DNA of 49,247 nucleotides from Candidatus Pacearchaeota archaeon (lineage in GTDB: Archaea; Nanobdellota; Nanobdellia; Pacearchaeales; GW2011-AR1). Shown one piece after another: positions 8 through 48,198 of the stretch. The stretch's first letter is position 1; each line of letters starts with the position of its first letter. A model generated the notes under the pieces. That model made no database searches. It was not told where the DNA came from and saw nothing but the letters and a program-made list of their open reading frames with translations. The translations under genes were made by a program, and so were the position numbers. The stretch covers positions 1 to 49,247 of the forward strand of contig JACQLK010000022.1 of assembly GCA_016204145.1 (NCBI GenBank). Direction: 5' to 3'.

Positions 8-165
8 CCCCCGCCGCCCGCCCCTAAGAAGCAAAGATAAAATTATTTTTTAACCGAGTTATCTCGCGAAATTGCCCGCCGCCACCCCGATAAAGCAAAT
101 GTTAATCTATAACAAATTCTATTATTTATGATTGAGATTTTTACATTAGCCATTTTAAATAATCT
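8..165 (+). repeat. Intergenic repeat family copy (two C-rich tracts, then AAATGTTAAT...ACATTAGCCATTT core)
   Basis: Similar to copies at ~7890, ~27984, ~29855, ~46403; CGCGAAATTGCCCGCC (65-80) resembles 30071-30090. Confidence 0.75.
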
Positions 166-253
166 CCAATTTGAATATCCCTTCTAAAATGAATAAATCT
201 TATTTATACAACCGGAAACTTCTTTTGATTAATTTTATATATTTGAAAATTCA

Positions 254-985
254 ATGTCTCTAATGGATAAAAAAGGTCAGCTGACGATTTTTATAATTCT
301 TGCGCTTGTTCTTGTCGGAGCGGTTGTTTTGTTTTTCGCGTTTCAAAATAATTTGATTCGGCAGCCGACAAATCCCGACGCAGGCAGGGTTCAAAATTTT
401 GTGCAGAACTGCATTAAACAAGAAGGAGAAGAAACAATTTATCAAACAGGGAAAAACGGGGGATATTTTTTCCCGCCAAATTTTTCTTTGCCGTCGGGAG
501 TTGCTATTTATTATGCAAACAACAAGAATTACGTTCCTTCAAAAAAACAAATTGAAGATGAAATTTCTTTTTTCATGAATGAGAAATTGTTTTTCTGCGC
601 GAGAAATTTTGCTGATTTTCCCGACTTGGAAATAACACAAGGGGAAATAAAAACACAAACAGATGTTCAAGATAATAAAGTCGTTTTCAATGTGAATTAT
701 CCGATAAGAATTTCAAAGGATAAAGATGTTTCTTTGCTTAATAATTTCAAGCAAGAAATTTCAATAAGGGCGGGAATTGTTTACGCCTCTGTCGCGGAAT
801 TTATGAGAAATAAAACAAGCGAAGGCATTTGCATTTCCTGCATGCTTGAAATTTCCGAGAAAAACGACTTGTATGTTGAAATGATGGATTACGACGAAAA
901 CACGACAATTTTTATCTTTAGAGATAAGAATTCAAAAATAAACAACGAGGATTTCACGTGGATTTTTGCGGAGAGGTATGGATAA
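254..985 (+). CDS. Pilin-like protein with archaeal class III signal peptide
   Basis: KKG|QLTIFII plus hydrophobic helix; paralogous to the N-terminus of 17435..19336 (C..G..GGY). Confidence 0.75.
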   Translation: MSLMDKKGQLTIFIILALVLVGAVVLFFAFQNNLIRQPTNPDAGRVQNFVQNCIKQEGEETIYQTGKNGGYFFPPNFSLPSGVAIYYANNKNYVPSKKQIEDEISFFMNEKLFFCARNFADFPDLEITQGEIKTQTDVQDNKVVFNVNYPIRISKDKDVSLLNNFKQEISIRAGIVYASVAEFMRNKTSEGICISCMLEISEKNDLYVEMMDYDENTTIFIFRDKNSKINNEDFTWIFAERYG

Positions 986-986
986 A

Positions 987-3107
987 ATGAAAATAAAAAA
1001 TAAAATATTTTTTGCGCTGATGGGAACGGTTTTAATTGCTAATTTGGTTTTAATTAGTGCAGAATTAACAGATTTAAGCAAGAGTTTGGATTTTAACGAT
1101 AACACCATAACTACATTTAGCTCTGACGGAATATCGTATGAAAAAACAGCCGATGGTGCTACAATAACATTCAAAGGCGGAGAGGTCACTGTTAAAGGAA
1201 ATTCTTTTGCAAACATAAAATCCGAAGAGGAAGCAAAACTTCCGTCTAAAATAAATCTTGACAAAGATGGAAAAGTCACAAACGCGGAATTCACAGTAAA
1301 TGAAAAAGGCGGGAATTATGTTTTTGGAAACACGCAGATTTATGCTCCGCCGAATTCAAGAGTTATGTTTGATGAAAAGACTGGAATTAGGATAAAAATT
1401 CCCGAAGGAAGCGAGATGAGCGATATTCCAAAACAAAAAGACATTTCAATCCCGTCTGAATATACGACGATAATTGAAGGAAATAATTACAAACTCCCAA
1501 ACAAGGCAGTTGTTAATGGGAAATTGGGATTTGATAAAAATGGGCAGGCGTTTGTTTCCCTTGACGACAAAACAATTGTAAATGGTGTTGAATTGACAAG
1601 CGGAATCAGTAAGCGTCCTCGGGAATACGGCGGAGAAGTTAATGTGTTTTTTGACGGACAAAAACATGAGGGGGACTATGCCTCTTTTGATTTGAAAAAT
1701 AAAAAGTTAATTTTATCCTCTGAAAAAAATGAAAATTTTATAACTAATTTTAATGGGGAAAATCCTTTTTTGAAAATTGACGAAGGAGATTATGTTACAG
1801 CAAAACCCTTGCCAGGAGGGGAAATTGAAATTCAGAATAGAGATGAAGAGGGACTGATTCCGAGGGTTACAACAAGAGGAAATTTTATTATAGATGAGGA
1901 TGGAAAATCAATATTTTATAAAGAAGAAGATTATTACAGGAAATTGGATGTTTTCCAAAAACTATTTTCTAATAGTAAGAGTACTACCACGTCTCCTATA
2001 GAACTTGATGTTTTTAATAAAGATGGTTTAAGCGCCTTTAAAAATAAAATACTTGTTGATAATTTTAATAGATTTATTTTTGATATACCCTCAAGTTCAC
2101 AGATTTTTTTTTCTTTTTTTTCAGAATCAGACTCACAAGTAATTAGTCTATCTAAGGTGGAAGGGATACCTTCTGTAGTATCCTCTTCAAGAATAAATTA
2201 TAACTATCCTTCTGAAGAAAGTTTAATTGCTTTAACTGGAAAAGAATTGATTTTCAGTGATGTTTCTCAAGGGGGCAAGGATTTACTTTTAGGAAGATTA
2301 AGGGATTATTGGGGAACTTTAACGCCCGAAACACAAGATTCTTTTAATCGGATTTCTTTTTTAAGCAGGTCTTCTTTCGAAGAACAATATAAACATATAA
2401 ATTTTGGGGAAAACCGGCCTATTGAATCTGTGGGGGCATTTGCAGGATTAAATGATATTGTTATTTCGCAAAATAGATTTGACTTTGAAACCTTTAGGCA
2501 CGAAGCGGCACATGAACTTCATTTATATGGGGTGGTCCATCAAAATGAAAAATATGCCCAGATAACCGATCAAATTAGTAAATTGCAGAATCAACTGGGA
2601 AGTTATGATAAAGAATTTGAAAATTTTGTCGCCGAATCCGATAAAAAAGGAATTTTTTGGCACGATACAGAACGTGGAACTTTTCTAAATTCTAAAATAA
2701 ATGAAATTGGAAATATAATAAGTTCTTTAGATTATGAGAAATGGGGTCTTATAGCTTCAGAAAAACAGTTATTTGATAATCAATGGAATTCTATTGTGGG
2801 AGAAAATTTTTACAACGGAGGAGTAGGAAAACTTGGAAAAGATGGCTATTGGAAATATAAAGATAATCCTTCTAGTAACGGTCCTGAACGAGGATTAATC
2901 ATGCCTTATGGTAGTTGGAATATCCATGAAGACGTCGCAACATTTGTTGGAGAAGTTAATAATCCTAAATTTTTTGCCCCTTTGATAAATCCAGACAGAC
3001 CTGATTACGACATTCGCTACAGACAAAAACTTGATTTATTGCATCAATATAAATTCATTTCTGACTCTGAATATAATAAAATTTTGGAGGTTGCGGGAGT
3101 AAAATAA
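987..3107 (+). CDS. Secreted protein with C-terminal zinc metallopeptidase-like domain
   Basis: Signal peptide from ATG 987; HEAAH at 2499-2513 and downstream EDVA (gluzincin-like third ligand) at ~2928. Confidence 0.65.
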   Translation: MKIKNKIFFALMGTVLIANLVLISAELTDLSKSLDFNDNTITTFSSDGISYEKTADGATITFKGGEVTVKGNSFANIKSEEEAKLPSKINLDKDGKVTNAEFTVNEKGGNYVFGNTQIYAPPNSRVMFDEKTGIRIKIPEGSEMSDIPKQKDISIPSEYTTIIEGNNYKLPNKAVVNGKLGFDKNGQAFVSLDDKTIVNGVELTSGISKRPREYGGEVNVFFDGQKHEGDYASFDLKNKKLILSSEKNENFITNFNGENPFLKIDEGDYVTAKPLPGGEIEIQNRDEEGLIPRVTTRGNFIIDEDGKSIFYKEEDYYRKLDVFQKLFSNSKSTTTSPIELDVFNKDGLSAFKNKILVDNFNRFIFDIPSSSQIFFSFFSESDSQVISLSKVEGIPSVVSSSRINYNYPSEESLIALTGKELIFSDVSQGGKDLLLGRLRDYWGTLTPETQDSFNRISFLSRSSFEEQYKHINFGENRPIESVGAFAGLNDIVISQNRFDFETFRHEAAHELHLYGVVHQNEKYAQITDQISKLQNQLGSYDKEFENFVAESDKKGIFWHDTERGTFLNSKINEIGNIISSLDYEKWGLIASEKQLFDNQWNSIVGENFYNGGVGKLGKDGYWKYKDNPSSNGPERGLIMPYGSWNIHEDVATFVGEVNNPKFFAPLINPDRPDYDIRYRQKLDLLHQYKFISDSEYNKILEVAGVK

Positions 3108-3246
3108 AAATGATAAAAAATAAAATAACGCTTCCCCCACAGGAGTTCGATAAAATGAAAAATAAAATTTTTCAGCATAAAAGTAGGAAATTTTCAAAAT
3201 TGCCGACTAGGAAATCGGCTCAAATAAATTTCAGAAGAAATTTATA

Positions 3247-5245: not shown

Positions 5246-5280
5246 ATTAATTTTAAATTTGTCCCGCTGTCCGCTTTGAA

Positions 5281-5425
5281 AACTAGAGGAGAAGAAATTT
5301 GCTTCACTTTGCTCAGAGATTAATGGCTTCGCGCCAGATTTTATCAAGGCGCTCCGCGAAATAAAGCGGTTAACGTGAAAAACATCGCGAGTTTTTATTA
5401 TGGCGCTTTGATGTTAACATTCTTC
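5281..5425 (+). repeat. Intergenic repeat, module B plus GTTAAC...GTTAACATT end
   Basis: About 95 bp closely similar to 12945-13038 (GGCTTCGCGCCAG..TCAAGGC..CGCGAAATAAA..GTTAA). Confidence 0.8.
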
Positions 5426-5487
5426 TTGGCAAAAACAATATTCTGAATCCGAATAATCTTTATAAAGTTCTTTAATCAAAACTTTTT

Positions 5488-7854: not shown

Positions 7855-7889
7855 ATTCATTTATCTTCCAGTTTCCTTGGCTAATTTTA

Positions 7890-8040
7890 CCCCCGCCCTC
7901 CCGCCCAACAAAACCAATGCTAATCTAAAAAAATCCGTTTGCCGTCTATTTTAACCTATAACTCCTTCCATTAATATACGATTGAGTTTTACATTAACAT
8001 TCTTTAAATGATTCTTATGCAGAAATCCCTGCCGCCGCCA
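7890..8040 (+). repeat. Intergenic repeat family copy with G4-type tract
   Basis: CCCCCGCCCTCCCGCCC AACAAAACCAA...CCGTTTGCC.TCT.TTTTAACC..ACATTAACATT; closest to 46403-46530. Confidence 0.8.
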
Positions 8041-10652: not shown

Positions 10653-10749
10653 TTTTGAGTTTTTTGCGGACATATACCCTGTTGGAAGAACACTTTCTTT
10701 TTTAATGAAACTTTTTCAATCATAAACCAAATTTATTTAAAAAATCTTA

Positions 10750-10930
10750 ATTCTTCTTGACTCATTAAACAGAATTTTTTTATCCCTCCGCCAAAATCTC
10801 CCGACTACTCGTCCGAAGAGGTCAAGGTTAATGTAAAATCGCGAATTTATAGTTATCATTCTTTGTCCCCCCGAATGAAGCGAGCCAAATTTTCGCGCAA
10901 ATTTAAACAATATCTTCTTATTAAACAAAT
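10750..10930 (+). repeat. Intergenic repeat, module C
   Basis: ATTCTTCTTGACT.ATTAAACAGAAT...AAAATCGCG.ATTTAT.GTTATCAT.CTTTGTC...GAAGCGAGCC shared with 14559-14780. Confidence 0.8.
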
Positions 10931-12931: not shown

Positions 12932-13092
12932 TCCGCCCCCCTAAGACCAGAAGAGAAAAAATTTGTTTCACTTCGTTTAAATATTAACGGCTTCGCGCCA
13001 GGTTTCATCAAGGCACTTCGCGAAATAAAAACGTTAATTGGCAATTCCGCCCTTTAATTTTTATGGGATTTTCTTGATTAACATTTTTTCTT
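12932..13092 (+). repeat. Intergenic repeat, module B plus GTTAAT...ATTAACATTTTTTC end
   Basis: Similar to 5281-5425. Confidence 0.8.
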
Positions 13093-13126
13093 TATGAAAA
13101 ACTTATACGACCGTTGGATATAAAAA

Positions 13127-14494: not shown

Positions 14495-14558
14495 AAATTT
14501 TATAGAGAAAAAAGCTTTTTAATACTAACGATTCACCGGGTTTGTTTAGAAGGTCCCG

Positions 14559-14780
14559 ATTCTTCTTGACTTATTAAACAGAATATTTTTTCATCCCGCC
14601 AACTCGTGCCCTGATTTATTATTAATATAAAAATTACTTAAATCAAAGCACTCACCCACTCCAGACAAAAACTTATGTTAGCATAAAATCGCGGATTTAT
14701 CGTTATCATCCTTTGTCATCGCGAGAGAAGCGAGCCGATTTTTCATTGTAAATTTAAACAAAATCCATTTATTGAACAAA
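14559..14780 (+). repeat. Intergenic repeat, module C
   Basis: Similar to 10750-10930 with an extra internal segment. Confidence 0.8.
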
Positions 14781-15152: not shown

Positions 15153-15251
15153 TTTTTTAATTGCCGTTTTTGATTTTTAAATCTATTGATTGATTTTTTG
15201 GAGATATTTATTTCGGTCTAAAAATCCATTTTTTTATCCAAATAATTTGTT

Positions 15252-15580
15252 CCCACCCGCCCATCCCATAATGAGCGAATAAAAAATAATTTTCAAACTG
15301 AATTTTCTTGCAAAGTCGTTCGCCGTCCGCCCTATTCGCGTCCTGACTTTGCCATTGATAAAATAAAATTTGTCAAAGTCAAAACTCTTGCCATCCGACA
15401 CCTTTGGCGCCGGCAAAAAAGATTCCGACCAATTGATATAAAATTAATTAAATTAAAATACCCATCCCGCAAAATAATATTAATTCTAAAACCCGACGCC
15501 ATAATTGATGAGAATAATTCCCAAATCAACGGATAAAATCGCAACTGAATCCGGAGAGTTAACATTTTTTCAGATGACTT
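15252..15580 (+). repeat. Degenerate intergenic repeat region with G4-type tract
   Basis: CCCACCCGCCCATCCC at 15252-15267; ends in GTTAACATTTTTTCAGA at ~15558-15574. Confidence 0.6.
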
Positions 15581-15701
15581 TCGCGAATTTTCTTATATCC
15601 TAAGCGGTTATTTTCTTCCATCCCCTTCCGCAAACAAATTGAAAAATATTTAAATGCGGAAAAATTGGCTTTATAATATAATTGTCTAAAATTGAGGATA
15701 A

Positions 15702-16532: not shown

Positions 16533-16550
16533 ATAGCCCCGCCCGGATTC
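16533..16550 (-). repeat. 18-bp duplication of the tRNA-Gln 3' end (att-like)
   Basis: ATAGCCCCGCCCGGATTC identical at 16533-16550 and 16641-16658. Confidence 0.85.
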
Positions 16551-16641
16551 AAAGCAGAACCGTCCAGCGGGGTTCTGCACCTCCAGCAACCGCAAACAAT
16601 CATGGGGTTTTAGCAAACCCAAACATTCTTTCAGAATGTTA

Positions 16642-16734
16642 TAGCCCCGCCCGGATTCGAACCGGGGTCACAGCCTTTCCATATTTCAAACAAATTTCAA
16701 AGGGCCGTATCCTTGACCGCTAGACTACGGGGCT
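16642..16734 (-). tRNA. tRNA-Gln(TTG) with 20-nt intron at 37/38 (16677-16696)
   Basis: A1-U72 acceptor AGCCCCG typical of archaeal Gln; CGGCC-CTTTGA|intron|A-GGCTG; GGTTCGAATCC. Confidence 0.9.
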
Positions 16735-17019
16735 TTTAGATAAAATGAGATAACAGTTTATAAGAATTTTGAATTTTTTAAATTCAGTTAATTTGCGACA
16801 ACCTTGTTATTTTTCAATTTTTTTGCAAGCATTCCGCTCATCTTCCCAAGCCGATTTTAATCAAAACCGCCCCTGTTCACATTTACGGCATTGTTTGGAG
16901 ATTAATATTTTTCAATCAACAGGAATTAGCGGAGCGGCTTTTATAGGATATTTTATCATAAAATTTCTCTGCCAGTCAAAAGAAAGCAAAAGATAAGTTG
17001 CCTGTTGAACAGTAAAGCG

Positions 17020-17088
17020 AGGTTAACTCCGACAAATTCGATTAACGGTTATAGCGGGATTTGCACATTAACTTTTTTCAGATAATTC
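17020..17088 (+). repeat. Partial intergenic repeat (GTTAAC..ATTAAC..ACATTAACTTTTTTCAGATAATT)
   Basis: Shares the terminal motif of the repeat family. Confidence 0.6.
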
Positions 17089-17208
17089 AAAATGATTGCC
17101 ATTCCTGCTACGTCTCAAAAAACAATTTTGATCTTCAACCGCGTTTTAAAGTATTAATTCTATTTTCTGCATTGGAAATATTTAAATATAATGCTCCGAT
17201 AAAATAAC

Positions 17209-27687: not shown

Positions 27688-27899
27688 GAAAAATGAGAAG
27701 AAATATTATTTATAAATCTTTATATTTTGTAGTAATTATGAAGTTATGACAAAGCGAGACAACCTACGGTTTTCTTCGCTTAACTTTCCCTTGAAAAACC
27801 AAAATTCATTCTTATCAAGCGATTACGCATACGCATCGCGAGGCGCGGAAAAGAAAACCCCTTCCTTAAAATACTTGCGGTTTTCTTTAACTTACAACC

Positions 27900-28078
27900 C
27901 CGCTCGTTTTAAATTTCACAAACTCATTCCTTCGCAGAAATCTCTCAAAGGAAAGCAAAATTTAACAGCAAACAAATTTCTTTCCCACCCGCCCGCCCTA
28001 GAAAACAAATGTTAACCGACGACAAACTCTATTAATGCTTATAATTGGAATTTACATTAACATTTTTCAGAGAATTTT
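27900..28078 (+). repeat. Intergenic repeat, module D plus core with G4-type tract
   Basis: First ~90 bp nearly identical to 29773-29862; CCCACCCGCCCGCCC at 27984-27998; AAATGTTAAC...ATTAACATTT inverted ends. Confidence 0.85.
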
Positions 28079-28155
28079 CACGCAAAATTATTTGCTTTGA
28101 TACGATGACTCGAATTAAAAATTCTTGTTCCGCATTTTTTCACTTCGCTCAAAAA

Positions 28156-29704: not shown

Positions 29705-29772
29705 TTTTTTATTTGTCACAACTCCGGCAAATTTTATTTCTCCCCCTCCAAAAAAATCTCCCCGTAGCAATT

Positions 29773-29945
29773 CCGCTCGTTTTGGATTTCACAAATTCAT
29801 CCTTCCGCAGAAATCTCTTAAAGGAAAGCAAAATTTAACAACAAACAAATTTCTTTCCCATCCAACCAACAAAAACCAATTTTAACAGATAACACTTCCA
29901 TTAGAATTTATGATTGGGGTTTTGCATTAACATCTTTCAAATAGT
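29773..29945 (+). repeat. Intergenic repeat, module D plus core
   Basis: Direct repeat of 27900-28078. Confidence 0.85.
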
Positions 29946-30070
29946 TTCTGCTGGGCGATTATCTACTAATAGAACAAATTAATCCTTTCGTGCTTCGACA
30001 TTGAAATTGATACAAATCTTTACCCAAATCAAGACACTCTGCTCGCGCAGCCCCGCGTTTATGGATTATA

Positions 30071-30162
30071 CGCGAAATCGCCCGTCCGCCAAAGAAAACC
30101 GAGGTTAATTCTAAAGCCCTATAAAATAGTTTTTCATATTAACATTTTTTTCAGATAATTCT
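30071..30162 (+). repeat. Intergenic repeat family copy
   Basis: CGCGAAATCGCCCGTCCGCC..GGTTAATT..ATTAACATTTTTTTCAGATAATT. Confidence 0.7.
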
Positions 30163-30249
30163 TGCAATTTTTTCGTCAGTTCAGGAATATTCTGCAAAAT
30201 ATATCATTTAACAGACAAAACATTATAAATTAAAACAAGAAGTAATTTC

Positions 30250-33472: not shown

Positions 33473-36400
33473 ATGGGAGGGACTCGTTTAGCAAAAGCCA
33501 GAATAGCGGAGCTTAAGAAAAGGATAGCTCATGCAGAGCAAAAGAAAAAAGAATTTTCAGATTATTTGCGCGGATTGAAACAAAAATATCATCGCGGCGA
33601 AATTTCATATTCGTCTTTCCTTGAACATTTTTATCAAAAGCGAAACGGGCTTAATCTGAAGGAGTGGCTTCTTCATTTTGACGACTATATCAAGGATTGC
33701 AAAAAGGAAATAAGAAAAGAGAGAATAAAACTCCTTGGGAACTATTCTGTGTTTGCATTTTTGTCTTTAGTTTTTATTTCAATTTTCTTCTTGGCTTTTT
33801 CCAATATGAACATCGGCTTCACGGGCTTTGCAATTCAGGAAGGAGAAAATATTTCCGCAAATCAATCGATTTCAGAAGAAATAAACGGAGAGGTTCAAAA
33901 TGAAACGAGTCCTTCCCATCAGATTGGACAAGAACCTCTCCCGCCTTCTGAGAACATAACTGCAAACGAAAGTTCTATTTCAGGAAATTTCTCTTCGGGA
34001 AATTTAACAGAACAAAATGCGACAGAAATTAATCAAACGCAAATCAACGAAACGCAAAATATTTCCGCGGAAAACGAAACAATTCCGATTCAAAACATCA
34101 CAAATCAAACGACTCAAAACATTGCAGAACAGAATATAACGCAACAAAACGTCTCAATCGTTGAAGATGCCACAATAAACACGACACAAGTAACTCCAAA
34201 AATAAAACTTGGCGAGAAAGTAAAATGGAAAAAAACAATTTCCAGTAATGAAATCGGAAACGCCACAATAATTCTCCCGAAAAATTCAGAAAACATAACA
34301 ATAACAAAAATAAAAGAAAACAAAGAAGAAGACATAACTTCTTCAAGCTCCATAACGGGCGCGGTTGTCGGCGGTTCAAGAGAAAATTTCATTTTCCGAC
34401 TTTTAAAAAACATTTTTGGAAGAATAACGGGAAGAATCGTTGATGAAATCGCGAGGCAAAATGTAAGCGTTGAGGTTGAGATTGAAATTGACGAGATTCA
34501 AGCAGAATATGAAGTTGAATATGAGACGCCCGCGCCTTATTCTATTGAAGAAGACATTGCTTTTGGGAAAAGAGTAAAAATTTTCGGTCCCGACGCGGTT
34601 CATTATGAAAACGTTCTCGCTTTCACGAATATTTCTGAAAATTTGAATTTGAAAAATCCAAGCAAGATAAAAATAAAATGGATTGAGCAAAATATTTACA
34701 TAAATCCGGATTCTGTTCTTGACTCGGATGAAAACGGAATTTACGATTATGTCGAGTGGAATGTTCCGAGTTTGAGCGAGCAGACGTTTGAAATAATTGT
34801 AATCACGAAAGCCGAGCATCTTGATGAAAATTATAATTTTGTTTCCGACATTTATGAACAGGTTAAAGAACTGGATGGGATTTGGAGCGAAGAAATTCCA
34901 GATGCACATTATGTTCGCGTAACGTTTGAAAAAAATCTTACAAATGAAAATGATATAACAATTTATCCGCGAATTACAAGCGGAAATCCGACTATTGAGG
35001 TTTATGAGGAAAACGGAAATGATTTGGTTGCAGAATTTTCTTCGCTGAATGAAAACGAATACAATAAAGTTTTTTTGACGAATCTTATTTCTGAATCTCA
35101 AAATGTTTTCGATTTGAAAGTCGTTGGTGGAACAATTCAAATAGATTACATTGTTGACCCTGTAGAAGTCGGATTTTTTGACGATTTTGAAGGAACATTG
35201 GCAAAATGGGGAACGACGTCTTGGGTTGTGACTACAGCGCAATTTAAAAACGGCGCGCAGTCTCTGCAATCTGCAAACGGGCAGGAAGGAGACATCATCA
35301 CAGACCCGTTTGACACATCCAACGCAACTTCAATCAATATAAGTTTTTGGTTCAGAGACAACAATTTGGATGCGGGCGATATAGATTTTTATTTTTTTAA
35401 CGGCACAAGTTCCGCTTATGAGTTGCAGACAGAAACTCTTGAAACTGAAACGGCAGAAGATATTTGGACATTTAAAAGTTTCACAACTTCAAACAGCGAA
35501 TTCTTCATAAGCAATTTCAGCGTAAGATTCAATGCTAATTTGGGAAACGGAGAAAATTTCTGGGTTGATGACTTTTCAGTAAACAAGACGACTGTCGTCG
35601 TGGATTCAACATCTCCAGATGTCACAATAAACGTTCCACAGAACACGACATATCATGTGCATTTTGATTTGCCATTTAATTTCAATGTTTCTTTAAATGA
35701 AGCTGGAAATGCATTATATTCCCTTGACAATGGTTTTACAAATATTACAATGAACACAACAGACAATTTGAATTTTAATGCGACTCTTCTGGATTTGACT
35801 GAAGGAAGTTACACTTTCCAAGTTTATGCAAACGATACTGCTGGAAATGCAAATTATTCGGAAAGTGTTGTTTTTGATTTAGTCATGGATAATATGCTTG
35901 TCAACGGAACAACCGTTGCTCCAGACGGAATGCCGACAAATACCACTTTTGTAATTATAGATGAATCTTCTTCAAATGTTGTTTACAATGAAACAAACGA
36001 TACACACGAGACGTTGATTCCTTTGAACTCAACTTACACAATTGAAGTTCTTCCTTTGGAAATAGATTCCGTAGACAAAGTTGAATTTAATGACGTTAAT
36101 TTTTCTGAAATAAATGATACTGTCACAAGCATTGTTAAAATAAATGAAAACGAAACTCTTGGAAATTTCAGTACTGTATTTTCCGTAAGACCGCAGTTTG
36201 AAACATTTGAAAACGGAACCTTATTTTTTACCGCGAAAGCGAACGCTTTGTTCAGATGCGGAGAGTGGAATTACACTATGGAATCTTGCCAGGGGAACTG
36301 GAGTTTGTTCATGAACGATTTGATTCCAGGAGAAGAATACAATTTCACATTTTCCGGAACAAGGGGTTACGGAATAATAAACATTACAAATGCGACACAT

Positions 36401-39400
36401 CTTGACTCAAACAGGAGTTACATATCCGACATTTATGACTATGTAAAAGAATATGACGGCAATTGGTCTGAAATAATTCCCGACGGGCATTACGTTCGCG
36501 TCGTCTTTCAAGAAAATCTGACCTCGGGCAACGATATTACAATCGTGCCGAGAAATCTTTCCGGAGATGCGAGAGTTGAGGTTTATGAAAACGGGCAGGA
36601 CGTTTTGCTTTCGGAATTTTATCCTTTGATTGAAGGAGAATTAAATCAAATTCTTCTTACAAATCTTACAGGAACGCAAGATGTATTTGACTTGCGTGTT
36701 TCGGGGAACGATGTTGAATTTGATTACATCGTCGACCCAAACATCACTGTCATTGATACTCAATCCAAAGACGTTGGGATAACTCCGATTAACAGCACCG
36801 CATTTGTAATAGTCTGGAATAATATCTCCTCTGATGTTGCTTCAAACGGTTCATTCTTTAAAATAATGACAACAACAGGAAGCATTGTCCTTGATACTGT
36901 TAAAGTAGACGAAAATAATCCGAGAGTTTCCGTCGCCGCCCTCAATTCAACAACATTTGCCCTTGTTTATGTGAACGCATCAACAGCGGATGAATTAAGA
37001 ACAGTATGGACTACTGACGGAACGAAAGTTTTTGGTCCGACAACAGATGACGGCTCTATAGGGGTTGTTGGTTGGGATGTTTCTGCGACGGCGATAAATG
37101 AAACAGCTTATGTTTCCTGCTATGTTGACATGGGAACAGACGGAGATGGGGACGTTCACATAATAAATTATAATGCCGCATCGTCTGAAATAGGGCTTAA
37201 CGGAGACATTGACGCCAACCAAAATTATGCAAATCTTTTTGATTGCGCGACCATAAATTCAACGGCGTGGGCGGGAGTAACGTATGATGCAGTAGACGCC
37301 GATGTCGGATTGGCGGTTTATAATGACAGGGGAACTGCGATAACTGCGCTTACTCTCATAGATACAAGTGTAGGAACAGGCGGAGCGCAGGTTTCTGTTA
37401 CTGGATTGAATGGCGAGAATTTTGCAATGGTTTGGTTTACAAATCTGAGCACTGCAGACACAAACATAAGCGCAACGGTAAGAACTGCAAACAATGGCGT
37501 TGTAACGGCAAAAACAAGAATTGTAAACATGCCCGGAAATTGGACAAGAATTGATGCTGCAACAGTGGCGAATGACACGGGAGATTATCTTGTTCTCGGC
37601 TGGATTAATTTAACAACAAAAGGTGTTTTGGCTCAAACATTCAAACAAGATTTGACTCCCGCTTCCGGAATAATAACAATTGATACCGCCATGAACAGGG
37701 AATACCCTTTGTTTGACATAATTGGAAAAACAACCACGACATCTTTATGCAATGAGACATTTGCTATTGCCTATACAAATTTCACAAATTCTACTGTTGT
37801 AAAAACATATTGGATGAATGGAAGCATTTGGAATGGAGTTTGTCCTGCCCCCGCGGACAACACAAAACCCGCAATTTCAATTTTTTCTCCCGCAAACTTG
37901 ACAAACACGACGGATAATTTGATTGATATTCTCGCGACATATTCCGACGCCGGCGGGCTTTCTTCCGCGTGGTATAACAATGATACTCATGCCGTGGCAA
38001 ACAAATCTCTTGGAACCGTCGGTTCATTTACAAATATAACAAATCTGACTTGGGGCGAGGGCGGACACAATGTGACGGTTTATGTGAGCGACACTGCGGG
38101 AAATGAAAATTGGACTTCTGTAACATTTGAAGTTGATTCAATAAAGCCCGCGATAGAAATTGTTTCTCCTGCAATAAATAATTCAAACAGTAGCGATACG
38201 GCTCTTGATATTACTTATACTACATCCGATGCGCATCTGTTTAATTTTTGGTATGCAAATGATACGACAACGGGCGCAAACAAATCCCTTGGTGTCTTGG
38301 GAACATCATTTAACATCACGAATATAACTTGGGGCGAAGGAAAACATAATGTTACAATTTACGCAAATGATACTTTTGGAAACGTAAATCAAACAAGAAT
38401 CAGCTTCACGATTGATTCAACAAAACCTCTTGTAACAATAGCAAATCCGACGACAAACAATACAAACACAAGCGACAATCTTCTCGATATAAATTACATA
38501 CCGACGGACACTTTTACGCAAATAGATTCTGCATGGTATACCAACAATTCAGGAAATATAAACAAATCCCTTGGAACACTCGGCTCTTTGACAAATATTT
38601 CAAACATAACTTGGGGCGAAGGAAAACACAACGTTACAATATACACAAATGACACCGCCGGAAACGTGAATTTCACGACGATAAGTTTTACTGTTGACAC
38701 CGTAATCCCTGGAATTTCAATTGATTCCCCAAGCAACCTGACAAATTCAAGCAATCCTGGTCTTGATGTAAATTTCATAGCATCTGATTCCGGTTCCGGG
38801 TTGTTCAATTTTTGGTATGCAAACGACACCTATTCTGTTGCAAACAAATCCCTTGGTGTCTTGGGAACATCATTTAACATCACGAATATAACTTGGGGCG
38901 AAGGAAATCATAATGTAACGATCTGGGCAAATGATTCTGCTGGAAATTACAATTTTGCGTCTGTTACATTTGAAGTTGATTCAATAAAGCCCGCGATAGA
39001 AATTGTTTCTCCGACGGGGAACAACACAAACACAAGCGACACCGCTCTTGATGTTACTTACACGACTTCGGATTTGCATCTTTTCAACTTTTGGTATAAC
39101 AATGATACTCATGCCGCGGCAAACAAATCTCTCGGTGTCTTGGGAACTTCATTCAACATCACAAACATAACATGGGGCGAGGGAAAGCATAATGTCACAA
39201 TTTATTCAAACGACACGTTTGGAAATGTGAATTTCACGACGACAAGTTTCACAATAGATTCAACTCTTCCTTTGATAACAATAACAAATCCCGCAAGCAA
39301 TAACACAAACACAAGCGACAATGGTTTGGATGTAAATTATGTTGCAACCGACACTTTCACGCAAATCAGTTCGGCATGGTATACAAATAATTCTGGGAAC

Positions 39401-41473
39401 ATAAACAAATCTCTCGGTGTTTTGGGTTCTTTGACAAATATTTCAAACATAACATGGGGCGAAGGAAAACACAATGTAACGATTTACACAAACGATTCGG
39501 CAGGAAACGTGAATTTCACGACGATAAGTTTTACAATCGACACAATACAACCAACAATCTCCATCGCATCTCCGTCAAATAATTCAAACAGCAGCGATAC
39601 CGGTTTGGATGTTCTTTACATTCCAACAGACGCGGGAAGCGGTTTGTTTAACTTCTGGTACAACAACGACACTTATACTGCCGCAAATAAAAGTTTAGGT
39701 GTTTTAGGGACTTCATTTAATATCACAAATCTCACATGGGGCGAGGGAAAACATAATGTCACAATCTGGGCAAACGATTCTGCTGGAAATTACAATTTCG
39801 CGTCGATAAGTTTTACGATTGACACTATAAATCCTGATTTAAATATAACTTATCCGATTAACAACTCGGTTGTTTCCGATATTAATGCAGACATAAATTA
39901 CACTCGCTTGGATTCAGGAAGCGGTTTGTTTAATTGTTGGTATTCAAATGACACATATCTTGCAAATACAACGCTTTCAAATTGTGAAAATGTAACCGCG
40001 GTTATATGGGGGGAAGGGGCGCACAACGCCACAATTTGGGCGAATGATTCAAGTGGAAATTTAAACAAGACATCTGTGACTTTTACAATATCCCTAAATA
40101 ATCCCCCTGAGATAAGAAATATTTACAATGACACCGCGACCATAATTGCCGCCGCTTCCGGAATCAGTTCTGGACCTTTGAACACTTCATTGATAGTTAA
40201 CTTTTCTGTTTATGACGCTAACGGCGTTGCAAATATGGATAACTCAACAGCGACGGTAAATTTCTCAAAATCAGGCGAGGCATTGAGACAAAGTCCGACT
40301 TGCGATCAGGTTGAAGTAGGCACAAATGTCGCAAATTACAGTTGCAATGTAACAATGTCTTGGTATGACGGGGCGGGAACCTGGGCGGTTCAGGCGTTTA
40401 TTTCAGATTTGGACAGCAACGACGCTAAAAACAATTCCGCGAATTTCTCTGTTGGCGAGACAACAGGATTTGAATCCGGTTCTTTGACTTTTCCATTCTT
40501 ATCTCCGGGGTTAAAAAATCAAACCTCTGCTGTCGCGTTACGGCTGAACAATACAGGAAACAAGAACATGGCTGCAAACACGACGCAGGTAAACGCGACA
40601 AACCTTCGCGGAGAGATAACCTCTGCATTTGCCATATGGTCCGGAAACATTTCTACAAGTTGGGATTCAACAACGCTTGAGGCGTGCGACACAAGCGGCG
40701 GCGATGGAATAAGGGCAAATAATATGTCTTCCGGCAACTATGTAAATATCACCACTGCTAATTTGACAAAAGGAAATTATTTTGTCAATGACGGAAGCAC
40801 GGGACAGGAGGACTTTTATTTCTGCATAAAAACAGTCGGAGCTGAATTGACTTCGCAGCAATATTCCACTGCAAACGAAGGCGCGTGGACAATAAGAATC
40901 CTTCTCGCATTTGTCGCAATTCCAAGAAAGAGGAAAAAGAAAACTGAAAAAGACAAATTGCTCGAAACAATCTCTCTGCTTGTTGACGAATTCAAGGAAA
41001 AGCACCGATTAAGCAAAGAAGACACTATGAATCTTGTCATAAAAGAAATAAGAAAAAAATATAAAATAAACAGAAGTGAAATTCTTGAACTTTCTGAGGT
41101 TAAGAAAATTTCAATTCCCGCGACAATATTCTCAGAGAAAATGGGAATTTTGGAATCGCTTGTGAAATACATGAAGGAAAATCTTGAAATGAGCTACAAG
41201 GAAATTGCCGAGGAAATCAACAGGGATGAGAGGACAATTTGGACATCTTACAAAAACGCCGTCGAGAAACAAAAAGAAGTCATAGAAGAAACCGAAACAA
41301 ACATAACAATTCCCCTTTCAATTTTCAAAGACAGCAAATCCACAATACTTGAATCAATTGTTGTTTATTTGAAGGAAAACGGAATGAGATATTCGGAAAT
41401 CGGCGAATTGCTCAATCGGGACCAGAGAAACATATGGACTATTTACGACAGAGCCGCAAAGAAAAAAAGATAG
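33473..41473 (+). CDS. Giant membrane-anchored Ig-repeat surface glycoprotein (2666 aa) with C-terminal tandem HTH-like domains
   Basis: Basic N-terminal domain, TM at about aa 92-112, sequon-rich body, eight WGEG.HN.T...ND..GN repeats, two ES.V.Y.KEN..Y.EI...NRD.R.IWT.Y units. Confidence 0.8.
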   Translation: MGGTRLAKARIAELKKRIAHAEQKKKEFSDYLRGLKQKYHRGEISYSSFLEHFYQKRNGLNLKEWLLHFDDYIKDCKKEIRKERIKLLGNYSVFAFLSLVFISIFFLAFSNMNIGFTGFAIQEGENISANQSISEEINGEVQNETSPSHQIGQEPLPPSENITANESSISGNFSSGNLTEQNATEINQTQINETQNISAENETIPIQNITNQTTQNIAEQNITQQNVSIVEDATINTTQVTPKIKLGEKVKWKKTISSNEIGNATIILPKNSENITITKIKENKEEDITSSSSITGAVVGGSRENFIFRLLKNIFGRITGRIVDEIARQNVSVEVEIEIDEIQAEYEVEYETPAPYSIEEDIAFGKRVKIFGPDAVHYENVLAFTNISENLNLKNPSKIKIKWIEQNIYINPDSVLDSDENGIYDYVEWNVPSLSEQTFEIIVITKAEHLDENYNFVSDIYEQVKELDGIWSEEIPDAHYVRVTFEKNLTNENDITIYPRITSGNPTIEVYEENGNDLVAEFSSLNENEYNKVFLTNLISESQNVFDLKVVGGTIQIDYIVDPVEVGFFDDFEGTLAKWGTTSWVVTTAQFKNGAQSLQSANGQEGDIITDPFDTSNATSINISFWFRDNNLDAGDIDFYFFNGTSSAYELQTETLETETAEDIWTFKSFTTSNSEFFISNFSVRFNANLGNGENFWVDDFSVNKTTVVVDSTSPDVTINVPQNTTYHVHFDLPFNFNVSLNEAGNALYSLDNGFTNITMNTTDNLNFNATLLDLTEGSYTFQVYANDTAGNANYSESVVFDLVMDNMLVNGTTVAPDGMPTNTTFVIIDESSSNVVYNETNDTHETLIPLNSTYTIEVLPLEIDSVDKVEFNDVNFSEINDTVTSIVKINENETLGNFSTVFSVRPQFETFENGTLFFTAKANALFRCGEWNYTMESCQGNWSLFMNDLIPGEEYNFTFSGTRGYGIINITNATHLDSNRSYISDIYDYVKEYDGNWSEIIPDGHYVRVVFQENLTSGNDITIVPRNLSGDARVEVYENGQDVLLSEFYPLIEGELNQILLTNLTGTQDVFDLRVSGNDVEFDYIVDPNITVIDTQSKDVGITPINSTAFVIVWNNISSDVASNGSFFKIMTTTGSIVLDTVKVDENNPRVSVAALNSTTFALVYVNASTADELRTVWTTDGTKVFGPTTDDGSIGVVGWDVSATAINETAYVSCYVDMGTDGDGDVHIINYNAASSEIGLNGDIDANQNYANLFDCATINSTAWAGVTYDAVDADVGLAVYNDRGTAITALTLIDTSVGTGGAQVSVTGLNGENFAMVWFTNLSTADTNISATVRTANNGVVTAKTRIVNMPGNWTRIDAATVANDTGDYLVLGWINLTTKGVLAQTFKQDLTPASGIITIDTAMNREYPLFDIIGKTTTTSLCNETFAIAYTNFTNSTVVKTYWMNGSIWNGVCPAPADNTKPAISIFSPANLTNTTDNLIDILATYSDAGGLSSAWYNNDTHAVANKSLGTVGSFTNITNLTWGEGGHNVTVYVSDTAGNENWTSVTFEVDSIKPAIEIVSPAINNSNSSDTALDITYTTSDAHLFNFWYANDTTTGANKSLGVLGTSFNITNITWGEGKHNVTIYANDTFGNVNQTRISFTIDSTKPLVTIANPTTNNTNTSDNLLDINYIPTDTFTQIDSAWYTNNSGNINKSLGTLGSLTNISNITWGEGKHNVTIYTNDTAGNVNFTTISFTVDTVIPGISIDSPSNLTNSSNPGLDVNFIASDSGSGLFNFWYANDTYSVANKSLGVLGTSFNITNITWGEGNHNVTIWANDSAGNYNFASVTFEVDSIKPAIEIVSPTGNNTNTSDTALDVTYTTSDLHLFNFWYNNDTHAAANKSLGVLGTSFNITNITWGEGKHNVTIYSNDTFGNVNFTTTSFTIDSTLPLITITNPASNNTNTSDNGLDVNYVATDTFTQISSAWYTNNSGNINKSLGVLGSLTNISNITWGEGKHNVTIYTNDSAGNVNFTTISFTIDTIQPTISIASPSNNSNSSDTGLDVLYIPTDAGSGLFNFWYNNDTYTAANKSLGVLGTSFNITNLTWGEGKHNVTIWANDSAGNYNFASISFTIDTINPDLNITYPINNSVVSDINADINYTRLDSGSGLFNCWYSNDTYLANTTLSNCENVTAVIWGEGAHNATIWANDSSGNLNKTSVTFTISLNNPPEIRNIYNDTATIIAAASGISSGPLNTSLIVNFSVYDANGVANMDNSTATVNFSKSGEALRQSPTCDQVEVGTNVANYSCNVTMSWYDGAGTWAVQAFISDLDSNDAKNNSANFSVGETTGFESGSLTFPFLSPGLKNQTSAVALRLNNTGNKNMAANTTQVNATNLRGEITSAFAIWSGNISTSWDSTTLEACDTSGGDGIRANNMSSGNYVNITTANLTKGNYFVNDGSTGQEDFYFCIKTVGAELTSQQYSTANEGAWTIRILLAFVAIPRKRKKKTEKDKLLETISLLVDEFKEKHRLSKEDTMNLVIKEIRKKYKINRSEILELSEVKKISIPATIFSEKMGILESLVKYMKENLEMSYKEIAEEINRDERTIWTSYKNAVEKQKEVIEETETNITIPLSIFKDSKSTILESIVVYLKENGMRYSEIGELLNRDQRNIWTIYDRAAKKKR
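34795..36738 (+). repeat. Duplicated ~120-aa domain (about 34795-35160 and 36374-36738)
   Basis: A.HLD.N....SDIY..VKE.DG.WSE.IPD.HYVRV.F...DYIVDP present twice. Confidence 0.85.
37856..40090 (+). repeat. Eight tandem Ig-like repeats (~94 aa) with 843-nt higher-order period
   Basis: WGEG codons start at 38051, 38330, 38612, 38894, 39173, 39455, 39737, 40007. Confidence 0.92.
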
Positions 41474-42584
41474 CTTGCTCGAGGGCGAAGAAAAAATCTA
41501 CCGCGAATAGATGATAAAATTTAACAATAGTTAATTCATTCCAAATTACCCCCCAATTGAAAAGAATAATGTTTAAAAAGAAAAAAAAATTAGTGTAAAT
41601 CAAGCGAGGTTGAAGTATTAAATGCATAAAATTAGGGGGGATAGAAAAATTTTTCTTTTGGCAATTTTGATAATCATGTCACTTTTAATTCCTTTTTCTT
41701 CCGCGGGATTTATTGACGATGCATGGGGAAAAATTACTGGAAAAGCGGCGCAATCGGTGAGTGTTAATATTACCATCGGCGTGCCTGAAATTCGAAATGT
41801 TTACAACAGCACTGCGACAATAATCGCCGCAGGCACAGGATTGAGTTCCGGTCCTGTAAATACTTCTTTAATAATTAATTTTTCTGTATATCTTGGCACA
41901 GGGGTGGCAAACATGGACAATGCGACAGCAACAATAAATTTTTCAAAAGCATCAGAAACATTGAGACAAAGTCCGACTTGCGATCAGGTTGAAGTGGGAA
42001 CAAATGTCGCAAATTACAGTTGCAATGTGACGATGTCTTGGTATGACGGGGCGGGAACATGGGCTATTCAGGCATTTATTTCAGATACCGGCGGAAACTC
42101 AGGAAAAAACAATTCCGCGAATTTCTCTGTTGGCGAGACAACAGGATTTCAAATGGGCGCATTAGGATGGGTTTCATTGTCTCCGGGCAGCACCAATCAA
42201 ACAGCCAGCGCCGCTTTGCGGCTGAACAATACGGGAAACAAAAACATGTCTGCAAACACGACGCAGGTAAACGCGACAAATCTTCGGGGAGAGACAGCGG
42301 CAAATAGATGGATTTCTGCAGGAAATATTTCGGTAAGCTGGGATGCAACAACGCTTGAGGCGTGCGACACAAGCGGAGGCAATGGAATTGCGGCAAACAA
42401 CATGAGCAACGGCACTTTTATAAACATAACAACAGCGAATCTGACAAAAGGACACTATCCTACAAATGATGGAAGCACGGGACAGGAAGATTTTTACTTT
42501 TGCATTAAAACAATCGGAAGCGAATTGACCTCGCAGTCATATTCGACGGCGGCGTACGGGCCTTGGATGGTTCAGATACTTCTA
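40106..42584 (+). repeat. 801-bp direct repeat pair (40106-40906 and 41784-42584)
   Basis: Same-length 267-aa domain PEIRN...ILL; long identical DNA tracts such as CATTGAGACAAAGTCCGACTTGCGATCAGGTTGAAGT. Confidence 0.92.
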
Positions 42585-42674
42585 ACGCCTTTGGTTTTAT
42601 TAAACATAAGAAGAAAAAATAAAAAGAATTATCGGAAATTAAATATGAATAGAGTTAAAAACTTTATCCACTAA
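41622..42674 (+). CDS. Secreted protein, stand-alone paralog of the last extracellular domain of 33473..41473
   Basis: Signal peptide; 267-aa shared domain; hydrophobic then basic tail. Confidence 0.85.
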   Translation: MHKIRGDRKIFLLAILIIMSLLIPFSSAGFIDDAWGKITGKAAQSVSVNITIGVPEIRNVYNSTATIIAAGTGLSSGPVNTSLIINFSVYLGTGVANMDNATATINFSKASETLRQSPTCDQVEVGTNVANYSCNVTMSWYDGAGTWAIQAFISDTGGNSGKNNSANFSVGETTGFQMGALGWVSLSPGSTNQTASAALRLNNTGNKNMSANTTQVNATNLRGETAANRWISAGNISVSWDATTLEACDTSGGNGIAANNMSNGTFINITTANLTKGHYPTNDGSTGQEDFYFCIKTIGSELTSQSYSTAAYGPWMVQILLTPLVLLNIRRKNKKNYRKLNMNRVKNFIH

Positions 42675-46300: not shown

Positions 46301-46402
46301 AATAATTTTTTCTGTTTTAACAACCGGTACATTGTTTTGACGAAATGATTTTTATTGTGTAATTCGCGCGGATATGCAAATTTAAATCAACTAAAAATTT
46401 CT

Positions 46403-46530
46403 CCCCGCTCACCCACCCCAACAAAACCAACACTAATTTAAAAAACCCGTTTGCCATCTGTTTTAACCGATAACAACTTCCATTAATTCTAAGGCGCGGG
46501 TTTGGGGTTAACACTTTTCAGATAATTTCA
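46403..46530 (+). repeat. Intergenic repeat family copy
   Basis: Collinear with 7890-8015; ends GTTAACACTTTTCAGATAATT. Confidence 0.8.
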
Positions 46531-46624
46531 GCGAATTTGTTCAATCAAAAAAACAATACCGACGATAAAATGCGGCATGATAAACGACGATAATAATTTA
46601 CAGATTATTTTTGCGTTAAAATTA

Positions 46625-47170: not shown

Positions 47171-47241
47171 GCGAAGATTTAGTTTTTAAATCTTGGGAAA
47201 CAAAAGATAACTCTGTTTAAAGATATCTCTATATTCGAAAA

Positions 47242-47314: not shown

Positions 47315-47364
47315 AATGAAAACCTCCGGGCGGGTTTTTCACAATTCCAGCATACAACTGGAAA

Positions 47365-47492
47365 CGCCCGAGACAGGATTTGAACCTGCGACCCCCTGCT
47401 TCCCTCTTCTCTCCAAAAAGGAGATGGTGCGGAAGAACCTTGGTTCTTCTGGTTAGAAGGCAGGTGCTCTCTCCAGGCTGAGCTACCCGGGC
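47365..47492 (-). tRNA. tRNA-Arg(TCT) with 53-nt intron at 37/38 (47401-47453)
   Basis: CCTGC-CTTCTA|intron|A-GCAGG; GGTTCAAATCC; central helix CTTC/GAGG. Confidence 0.9.
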
Positions 47493-47539
47493 TTTAATAT
47501 ACAGATGAGAAAAAAATCTATTTAAAATGTTTTGTTATT

Positions 47540-48067
47540 CTAAATCCTCATCAATCTTATCGCTTCTTCGCAGGTTTCTTTGAGATTGTCATAAATTTTC
47601 ACATCAGGGCAATCGTCGGAGAATATTTTTCTTATGTATCTCTCGCCGCTGAATCCGCTTTCAATTCCCATGACTAATTTTGACCAGTTTATTTCATGCC
47701 TCAATTTTGATTCCGCCAATTCAACTCTTGACGTCTGTGCGTAAGACCTATCGCAACGATGCTCGTATTCTTTCGCAAGCCAAAACATAACCACGCCGTT
47801 TTTCCATGTTTTTTTCAAATGCGCCCTTTCCCAATCAATTTGCTCAAAATATTTCTCCCGAGAATAATCCCCGACGTTTTTTTCATTTCTTCTCGGAGAG
47901 AATATTATTATTTTGCTTTCCAACGAGCGCAGATGTTTTATTGCGTCGCTTTGCCAGTCGGCAGCGCCCTGAATCGGTCCGCCGATGAAAACAAAATTTC
48001 GCCCAATTTTTTCCCATTCCTCAACGCTTAAATATGTTGGCGGAGTAATAATCCTGTTTTCGTCCAT
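47540..48067 (-). CDS. Nucleoside 2-deoxyribosyltransferase-like protein
   Basis: VFIGGPIQGAADWQ, SPRR, QIDWE..HL, VMFWL, SRVEL. Confidence 0.75.
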   Translation of the reverse strand: MDENRIITPPTYLSVEEWEKIGRNFVFIGGPIQGAADWQSDAIKHLRSLESKIIIFSPRRNEKNVGDYSREKYFEQIDWERAHLKKTWKNGVVMFWLAKEYEHRCDRSYAQTSRVELAESKLRHEINWSKLVMGIESGFSGERYIRKIFSDDCPDVKIYDNLKETCEEAIRLMRI

Positions 48068-48155
48068 TAGAATAATTAGAAAAAGAGAATAAAAACTTTT
48101 ATGTGATTTGTCACATGAATCTGAAAGTTGCAGGAAAAGATGTTATCCGTCAAAA

Positions 48156-48198
48156 CCCCGTTAATATTACAATTCGGTTTGGACATTAACATTTCCCA
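48156..48198 (+). repeat. Short intergenic repeat remnant (CCCCGTTAAT...ACATTAACATTT)
   Basis: Shares the GTTAA...ACATTAACATTT frame of the family. Confidence 0.5.

Follow-up and report, generated by a model that had tools for sequence, protein, structure and literature searches.

When related non-coding sequence is found in gap after gap between the genes of one contig, always on the same strand, the question arises as to what keeps it aligned. The stretch considered here is contig JACQLK010000022.1 of a Candidatus Pacearchaeota archaeon (assembly GCA_016204145.1), analyzed over its full length of 49,247 nt and hereinafter called the window; it is the entire contig C13 of genome G000 (756,625 bp in 34 contigs, 88% complete). 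The organism can be recognized as an archaeon from the window itself, because RadA, TFB and an RPA-like protein are encoded there, together with intron-bearing tRNAs. The window carries a family of polar intergenic repeats whose orientation follows the direction of replication, not the neighboring genes. As a tentative explanation, to which we would not commit ourselves firmly, we suggest that these repeats are selfish or duplicative DNA spreading in a strand-specific manner through the single-stranded DNA of the replication fork.

A repeat family in the gaps between genes

A profile built from 10 window copies was used to scan the whole of G000 with nhmmer, which yielded 46 raw matches at E<=1e-3 and 57 at E<=1e-2; the reversed genome gave 0 matches (best E 0.067). 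Upon removal of overlaps, 55 copies remain at E<=1e-2, all intergenic and 11 of them in the window. Core copies total about 4.7 kb, that is, 4.5% of the intergenic DNA of G000, the companion modules described below being extra; in 12 window gaps, 2,310 of the 4,286 nt recur elsewhere in the genome. A first-pass annotation of the window had named 13 gap loci for the family. Core copies are indeed found at ten of these (75, 5354, 7890, 13019, 17011, 27981, 29851, 30078, 46402 and 48136), and at the remaining three (10750, 14559 and 15252) different modules belonging to this polar set are present. The consensus quoted at that time described a real family, but its literal strings are only a loose fit: with <=3 mismatches allowed, the 22-mer has a single match, and the 14-mer has 11 matches at <=2 mismatches against 4.7 expected, a count reached in 2 of 100 shuffles. 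We found no earlier description of the repeat family in the literature.

Read along its own strand, the core comprises a C-rich tract, RAAAAC, a left box TGTTAAY, some 40 nt of middle sequence, a right box CATTAACA, a run of five to seven T residues (in nearly all copies) and CARATAATTC; the middle often contains CTTCCATTAAT and ATTTATGATTGAGG, and TCGCGAARTTGC often follows CARATAATTC. Among 30 anchorable copies, 19 have a distance of 41-47 nt from TTAA to TTAA, and both TTAA are invariant across 27 aligned copies. Inverted arms of 7 nt (ATGTTAA/TTAACAT) are present, but conservation runs on outside the arms. The C-rich tract sometimes takes the form C3-N-C3-N-C3-N-C3, and all nine such motifs on oriented contigs follow the orientation of the family. 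In composition, the family strand (G 0.118, C 0.226) differs from the sum of all gaps (G 0.158, C 0.164).

The core shows no fold. RNAalifold detects 0 consensus pairs in 27 copies and, as single-stranded DNA, none of ten copies is more stably folded than its shuffled versions (z from -0.73 to +1.63, positive in eight); for a 201-nt unit, z is -0.23 on the plus strand and -1.20 on the minus strand. Covariance models of Rfam 15, applied to the window at E<=1, returned only five tRNA matches, and 0 matches in six further copies; thus, no Rfam family corresponds to the repeats. A blastn comparison of the 201-nt unit with plasmid and phage collections gave no match.

Repeat orientation follows the direction of replication

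All 11 non-overlapping copies of the window lie on the plus strand, so that the single-strand arrangement claimed in the first-pass annotation is borne out, and matches of window gap sequence within the same contig are direct in 18 cases and inverted in 0. The orientation is not random in the genome at large either, being uniform in 11 of the 12 multi-copy contigs of G000 (43 copies: C13 11+, C5 6+, C20 6-, C3 5-, C17 3+, and six contigs with two copies each); the exception is C14, where one locus matches on both strands. By hand calculation, the chance of such uniformity is about 2^-32.

The genes do not provide the alignment. The gene upstream of a copy lies on the same strand in 29 cases and on the opposite strand in 18, and the gene downstream in 25 and 28 cases, respectively; among the 692 genes counted in G000, 374 (54%) are co-oriented with the family. 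Mixed flanking strands and this near-even share rule out hitch-hiking of the repeats on gene strand. Although the gene strand bias of G000 is thus only 54%, a gene-independent third-codon T/A skew is detectable. When this skew is corrected by taking the mean for plus-strand and minus-strand genes, both read on the plus strand, its sign coincides with repeat orientation in 19 of 21 G000 contigs, including C2, C12, C19, C26 and C34, where most genes point the opposite way. Agreement fails for C16, where plus-strand genes supply no more than 108 third positions, and for C28, which holds a single copy at E 0.0046.

The same holds in a sister species. For comparison, five genomes of the genus (G000-G004, 73-89% complete, all in fragmented assemblies) were considered, with a second model, R1, built from the G000 copies and used across relatives. 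In G004 (89% complete, 37 copies), the sign of the skew agrees with repeat orientation in six contigs of six, including a 99-kb contig that has seven plus-strand copies and only 41% plus-strand genes. On G004:C1, the two flip jointly: copies are on the plus strand at 2.3-2.8 kb and on the minus strand at 15.4 and 26.2 kb, and alongside this the T/A skew of minus-strand genes drops from 0.228 to 0.05-0.08. A replication terminus of this sister species may therefore lie on G004:C1 in the interval from about 2.8 to 15.4 kb.

Two further compasses point the same way. The likely replication origin (oriC) of G000 is at C9:1-748, directly upstream of cdc6, where an AT-rich stretch with several dyads resembling TTTCCACGGAAA, akin to origin recognition boxes (ORB), is accompanied by three direct copies of the 22-nt unit GAGTAATTCCCATGTTATTTTT; the AT-rich stretch with its dyads is as expected of archaeal origins, and a similar region is found at G004:C13:19750-20520. 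The copies on C9 are on the plus strand and point away from oriC. In G004, cdc6 is followed 16-19 kb downstream, without a change of strand, by homologues of the first two genes of the window, and C24, which by synteny is beyond the origin, shows skew of the expected sign; no contig spans the origin with copies on both sides. The ORB-like dyads themselves differ from the family, so that the repeats cannot be taken for origin recognition boxes. The other compass comprises the resident insertion sequences (IS) of the IS200/IS605 family, which are oriented as the repeats on eight of the eight contigs that hold both. According to an excerpt of PMC5027513, the active strand of IS200/IS605 elements lies on the lagging-strand template. 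Given the skew, the oriC and the IS200/IS605 compasses, the strand with the C-rich tract and the T-run is the lagging-strand template, and the replichore orientation proposed at the outset is supported by all three. On C32, the two IS types of G000 point opposite ways, so this contig may span a polarity switch.

Neighboring genes and RNA readings

Could the repeats nevertheless serve the genes next to them? Flanking genes take all four arrangements, which sustains the early argument against promoter and terminator function. Promoters of G000 display TTTATA/TATAAA about 33 nt before start codons, and in 30 anchored copies no A/T box upstream of the C-tract was found to keep a constant distance from it. 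The downstream gene begins at a variable distance, 13-367 nt, and is co-oriented in 25 of 53 cases; a promoter of the downstream gene can thus be dismissed. As to terminators, the T-run is there, and oligo-U tracts are an archaeal termination signal, as stated in excerpts of PMC8716108 and PMC13675443. In 29 of 47 cases the upstream gene runs in the direction of the copy, and a terminator role fails in the other 18 because that gene points away. The repeats are neither promoters nor structured RNAs serving neighboring genes, and they are probably not terminators of these genes either.

A reading that dispenses with the neighbors is that the repeats are small RNA units of their own, with a C-rich 5' part that could possibly pair with G-rich ribosome-binding sites and a T-run at the end, or else one-way oligo-U terminator cassettes, in both cases co-directional with replication. 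Besides the T-run and the share of co-oriented upstream genes, a TATA-like box that some copies have about 25 nt upstream of their C-tract and the 5' hairpin added by module D10 (see below) speak for it. The box is, however, not at a fixed distance across the anchored copies, there is neither a conserved fold nor an Rfam match, and indels exclude an encoded peptide. Moreover, four of the five tRNA genes called by Rfam in the window are on the minus strand, opposite to the repeats, so that a 100% bias for small RNA genes would be odd. Hence, we consider this reading improbable.

Several other host functions were tried and rejected. C/D-box or H/ACA guide RNAs do not fit, since neither strand, inspected by eye, shows the boxes in the order that such RNAs require, and a fold is lacking. 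A six-codon mini-ORF (open reading frame), ATGATTGAGGTTTTACATTAA, has its frame broken by indels in other copies. Nor is a restriction-site story persuasive, GTTAAC and TTAA in genes having observed/expected ratios of 0.66 and 0.79, which is not strong avoidance.

Core copies and companion modules along the window

The features of the window described below are all on the plus strand, except where indicated. The series opens with a degenerate unit at 8..56 (C-rich tract CCCCCGCCGCCCGCCCC, a short remnant and a T-run; weak profile match only, E 5.5), followed at 70..178 by a core copy with a C-rich tract, a left TGTTAAT box and a right CATTAG box (nhmmer E 1.8e-15; R1 E 1.5e-13). The copies at 5354..5441 (a divergent subtype, E 3.8e-9) and 13019..13102 (E 3.4e-9) are each preceded by module D11 (5279..5373 and 12943..13037), which contains a GCGCC...GGCGC hairpin and ends at the left GTTAA box. 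The copies at 7883..8015 (E 9.9e-15) and 46395..46539 (E 7.1e-18) share an insertion of about 40 nt, placed in the former after the first TAAT box; the C-tract of the former is C5 G C3 T C3 G C3, the opposite strand being a G-quadruplex-type motif. Two further copies are a weak one at 16848..16925 (E 0.0021; R1 E 1e-6) and one at 17011..17095 (E 3.9e-13). The best copy, at 27981..28082 with the C-tract CCCACCCGCCCGCCC (E 4.2e-22), follows upstream module D10 (27895..27990, with the hairpin GGAAAGCAAAATTT...AAATTTCTTTCC), and the second copy of D10 (29768..29863) precedes the core at 29851..29957 (E 5e-20); a third copy of D10 is on C2. Another core lies 227 nt after the preceding one, at 30078..30163 (E 3.3e-11), and the last, at 48136..48209, is without a C-tract (E 1.5e-10).

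The gaps that lack a core hold other modules. The module TTCTTCTTGACTCATTAAACAGAAT at 10732..10790 has copies at 14541, on C11 and on C27 and is matched in sister species, including G003; its second copy in the window, TTCTTCTTGAC, is at 14541..14588. Module D14, an alternative cassette that starts at a GGTTAAT left box, occupies 10827..10930 and 14677..14780. The gap at 15153-15701 contains a block of about 430 nt that opens with the C-rich tract CCCACCCGCCCATCCC (15252..15270) and includes a solo right box with T-run, GTTAACATTTTTTCAGATGAC, at 15555..15590.

The long modules shared pairwise between distant loci in the first reading are confirmed as four direct-repeat pairs: 27895/29768 with 89% identity (27895-27990 to 29768-29863), 5279/12943 with 81% (5279-5373 to 12943-13037), 10827/14677 with 81% (over 14677-14744) and 7883/46395 with 73% (over 46395-46487). 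That modules join at TTAA applies to three of the four window pairs, which start or stop at a TTAA box, but does not generalize: genome-wide, 0.218 of 1,249 match ends are near TTAA versus 0.242 of random positions, so there is no enrichment. The suggestion of recombinase-shuffled modules is not established, as no enzyme supports it and the mosaic can be explained by ordinary recombination at the only conserved stretches.

Is every repeat of this genome polar? This is ruled out by two controls. The hairpin module M2 (GACTTTG...CAAAGTC; 15331..15392, without polarity), which co-occurs with the family and sits beside polar repeats in both orientations, has ten other loci, of which five agree with family orientation, four oppose it and one is on a contig without orientation; a different repeat at 3150-3228 agrees in seven cases and opposes in eight. 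In contrast to these, the core scores eight agreeing and none opposing, D10 3:0 at three other loci, D11 3:1 at four, the module TTCTTGAC 2:0 on contigs with known family orientation, and D14 7:0 at eight other loci, one of which is on a contig without family orientation. The polarity is specific to the core and its set of companion modules.

These controls bear on the view that the repeats are passive relics of local tandem duplication and gene conversion, their common orientation being that of the survivors, since inverted copies would cause harmful inversions. Such a view requires no enzyme and accommodates the mosaic content with breakpoints in conserved boxes, as well as the arrays of G004, in which the units follow one another head to tail about every 96-128 nt. 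It is difficult to reconcile, however, with two non-polar repeat families in the same genome, and the presence of repeats in new gaps on many contigs calls for an insertion step. In addition, selection against inverted pairs should be weak because copies of about 100 nt at some 60% identity are poor substrates for homologous recombination. We consider passive relics highly improbable.

Distribution, age and turnover

The family was found only in this genus. The model matches number 66, 37 (G004), 13, 8 and 0 (G003) in the five genomes; in G003, synteny is kept and some companion modules are present, with 0 core matches. Outside the genus, marginal single matches occur in 2 of 36 other relatives, and among 150 other genera of the same archaeal family one shows a single marginal match. 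Of 80 metagenome loci, only the nearest (92% protein identity) gave strong matches, two in number, and there was one weak match besides; relatives at the level of strains did not appear in this metagenome scan. Distant versions could be missed because the model was built from G000 copies.

Within the genus, positions turn over. Mean pairwise identity is 0.595 within G000, 0.606 within G004 and 0.584 between them, so that copies differ nearly as much inside one genome as across species, and the family is old. Of 18 comparable gaps of G004, 2 hold a copy in G000; the gaps that bear repeats are 80-190 nt long and empty in sister species. The gap at 15153-15701 is 549 nt long in G000, and its block of about 430 nt, missing from the equivalent gap in four sister species, sits exactly between back-to-back promoters that are adjacent in those four. 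At both junctions of this block there is ATTGA, a possible 5-nt duplication seen by eye; between sister species, filled and empty gaps have diverged too far for the junctions to be located. In the 92% relative, represented by a 1.8-kb contig and compared through the protein of the adjoining gene, there is a core copy at the position of 13019, with the orientation kept and a different content. The repeats prefer gaps between gene ends, being found in 10 of 54 convergent, 25 of 262 tandem and 5 of 110 divergent gaps; together with the empty gaps of the sister species, this pattern is typical of tolerated insertions. Overall, the pattern is that of long-lived, slowly turning-over insertions in which a few conserved boxes are under constraint.

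It is at this point that the possibility of a host function has to be weighed, namely that the repeats are a cis-acting signal read in one direction, an archaeal counterpart of KOPS, Chi or Ter, be it a binding site in the template of the lagging strand or a one-way signal for forks or translocases, with the TTAA boxes as protein sites. The near-absolute polarity tied to replication direction is what such a signal would display, and the TTAA boxes, of which three are spaced about 22 nt apart, are invariant despite the age of the family; the top strand is G-poor and, with z > -0.8 for all 10 copies folded, has no more structure than shuffled sequence, and there is no transposase common to the carrier genomes. 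A signal of this kind, however, would hardly be restricted to four of the five genomes of one genus, with only the marginal match in 1 of 150 other genera, nor be missing as a core from the syntenic G003. Its positions are not conserved, copies are distributed very unequally (49 kb of C13 hold 11 of them, 55 kb of C31 hold 1), convergent gaps are favored as with neutral insertions, and no candidate binding protein was identified. A host signal therefore appears unlikely to us.

Relation to mobile elements

No cognate enzyme is encoded in the window, as the first-pass annotation had stated, so candidates have to be sought in the rest of the genome and of the genus. G000 harbors two IS200/IS605 types with a Y1 TnpA transposase. 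One of these has a full copy at C3:48398-48913 and a mini copy at C32:4020-4218, some 200 bp long and devoid of tnpA, and occurs also at C5:17400-17760, where its interior is replaced by family modules between the left and right ends. The other occurs in multiple copies and accounts for assembly breaks at seven contig ends (C2, C7, C8, C12, C27, C32 and C34). Three near-identical core copies adjoin an IS200-type right end, the C5 copy having the left end as well; hence, the repeats can ride inside IS200/IS605 elements.

Do these findings make the family a non-autonomous IS200/IS605 derivative, that is, a palindrome-associated transposable element (PATE), moved as single-stranded DNA by a Y1 HUH transposase in trans? 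The polarity is the same as that of the resident elements and as known for this IS family according to an excerpt of PMC5027513; two Y1 transposase types are at hand in G000, and the C5 block together with the two further copies that keep a right end connects repeats and elements physically. However, the core is without subterminal hairpins: hairpins of the IS200 type, which a PATE should have, occur only at the C5 block and in those two copies. The tie to IS ends concerns 3 of the 55 copies, the other 52 being without them, and the family shows no sequence relationship to the ends of either resident IS type. Y1_Tnp was found only in G000; it was not found in G003 or, with genomes 73-89% complete, in the three other carriers, G004 (37 copies in a genome 89% complete), G002 and G001. 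A few pairs and trios aside, there are no near-identical dispersed copies. Thus, of the initial idea of IS200/IS605-type transposition, the polarity and the one block between IS200-type ends stand, but the missing hairpins and the distribution of Y1 TnpA render an origin as a PATE rather improbable in our opinion.

Other enzymes fare no better. DDE_3 and rve were found in 0 of the five genus genomes, tyrosine recombinases in four of five, and a TnpB-like match is present on C31 of G000; no RAYT-like gene flanked by repeats was seen. A miniature inverted-repeat transposable element (MITE) of a DDE transposon is made improbable by the non-random orientation, the lack of a consistent duplication, the conservation beyond the 7-nt arms and the absence of DDE_3 and rve, as is a piggyBac-like insertion into TTAA by the polarity and by the lack of a flanking TTAA duplication. 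A rolling-circle nick site is not supported either, as TAATATTAC is present in one copy (48136) and not in others and no stem is conserved. Integron attC sites have the core sites RYYYAAC/GTTRRRY, which, by reading, do not fit TGTTAAC/ATTAACA.

Possible mode of spreading and comparison with known systems

Returning to the tentative explanation by selfish or duplicative DNA, we infer the following mode of spreading. A core of about 100 nt, which travels with several companion modules as a mosaic repeat, would spread through single-stranded fork DNA, either by means of a strand-specific enzyme acting in trans or through template switching between exposed lagging-strand templates; the TTAA boxes, the C-tract and the T-run would be the cis sequences needed for spreading. 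Several of our own observations weigh against this. No enzyme is common to the carrier species, Y1_Tnp, DDE_Tnp_1 and RT being found only in G000, and the core is without the hairpins that known single-strand transposases require. No element ends, target motif or consistent target duplication were found in the family. There was no recent burst, and old copies with invariant TTAA boxes also fit selection for a host function. The compass itself is indirect, consisting of skew, IS orientation and one origin on a 34-contig assembly, not a closed genome, and the gene calls come from our own ORF caller.

One close parallel is provided by IS200/IS605 elements and their PATEs (excerpts of PMC5027513 and PMC3119063), whose polarity is strict, the active strand lying on the template of the lagging strand (PMC5027513); the repeats are likewise intergenic and, as far as the junctions can be read, without a clear target duplication. 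Unlike these elements, the family has a core without subterminal hairpins and undefined ends, its copies are old and about 60% identical, and it is present in species where no Y1 transposase was found. A second parallel is offered by the repetitive extragenic palindromes (REPs) and bacterial interspersed mosaic elements (BIMEs) of enterobacteria with their RAYT, which, as described in an excerpt of PMC3333891, are old, lineage-specific intergenic module mosaics common between gene ends. However, REPs are short G+C-rich palindromes and BIMEs alternate in orientation, whereas the family is non-palindromic, G-poor on its strand and uniform by replichore.

KOPS, Chi and Ter are bacterial motifs of 8-23 bp with known reader proteins that also occur inside genes. 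Their orientation switches with replication direction, as the joint flip on G004:C1 suggests for the family too, but the latter consists of modular units of about 100 nt that are found only in gaps and only in this genus, at uneven density. An excerpt of the IS200/IS605 work (PMC5027513) refers to Ter and Tus. Finally, autonomous bacterial IS whose transposases bind to the sliding clamp show a family-specific orientation bias relative to replication, according to an excerpt of Gomez et al. 2014 (PMC3971601); the bias is shared, and the difference is that no transposase is linked to the repeats here.

What would follow from these repeats depends only in part on how they spread. DPANN archaea have some of the smallest cellular genomes; in G000, with gene strand bias almost absent (54%), replication direction is marked most clearly by the repeats and the IS200/IS605 copies, which could serve to orient contigs in metagenome-assembled genomes of this kind and to locate their origins and termini. 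If the family is mobile, it would represent replication-coupled, strand-specific spread without the hairpins of known single-strand transposons. If it is a host signal, one would have to ask by what means direction is read by archaeal replisomes or translocases, a task for which we know of no cis element. Two ideas that depart further from the above, and which we hold to be doubtful, are that the repeats are not selfish at all and are read by the replisome or a DNA translocase for replication direction and, second, that they spread by enzyme-free template switching between exposed lagging-strand templates. The former, if true, would make the family the first polar cis element of its sort described in archaea; the latter, if true, would be a new mode of DNA selfishness.

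Other features of the window

The non-polar repeat at 3150-3228, a GCCGA...TCGGC hairpin, is separate from the family; it has 18 other loci in G000 and matches of 83-94% in sister species, and it may be a gene-linked leader or terminator. Two tRNA genes of the window have long introns, one at 16536-16600 and 16642-16734 and the other at 47365-47492; a partial duplicate of a tRNA 3' half (ATAGCCCCGCCCGGATTC...) adjoins the first of these. Two giant ORFs, at 19346-26731 and 33473-41473, correspond to 2,461 and 2,666 amino acids, the second containing internal tandem repeats of 279-282 nt. The next gene, at 41622-42674, is an approximately 80% copy of the 3' part of the latter ORF (40106-40872 versus 41784-42550).

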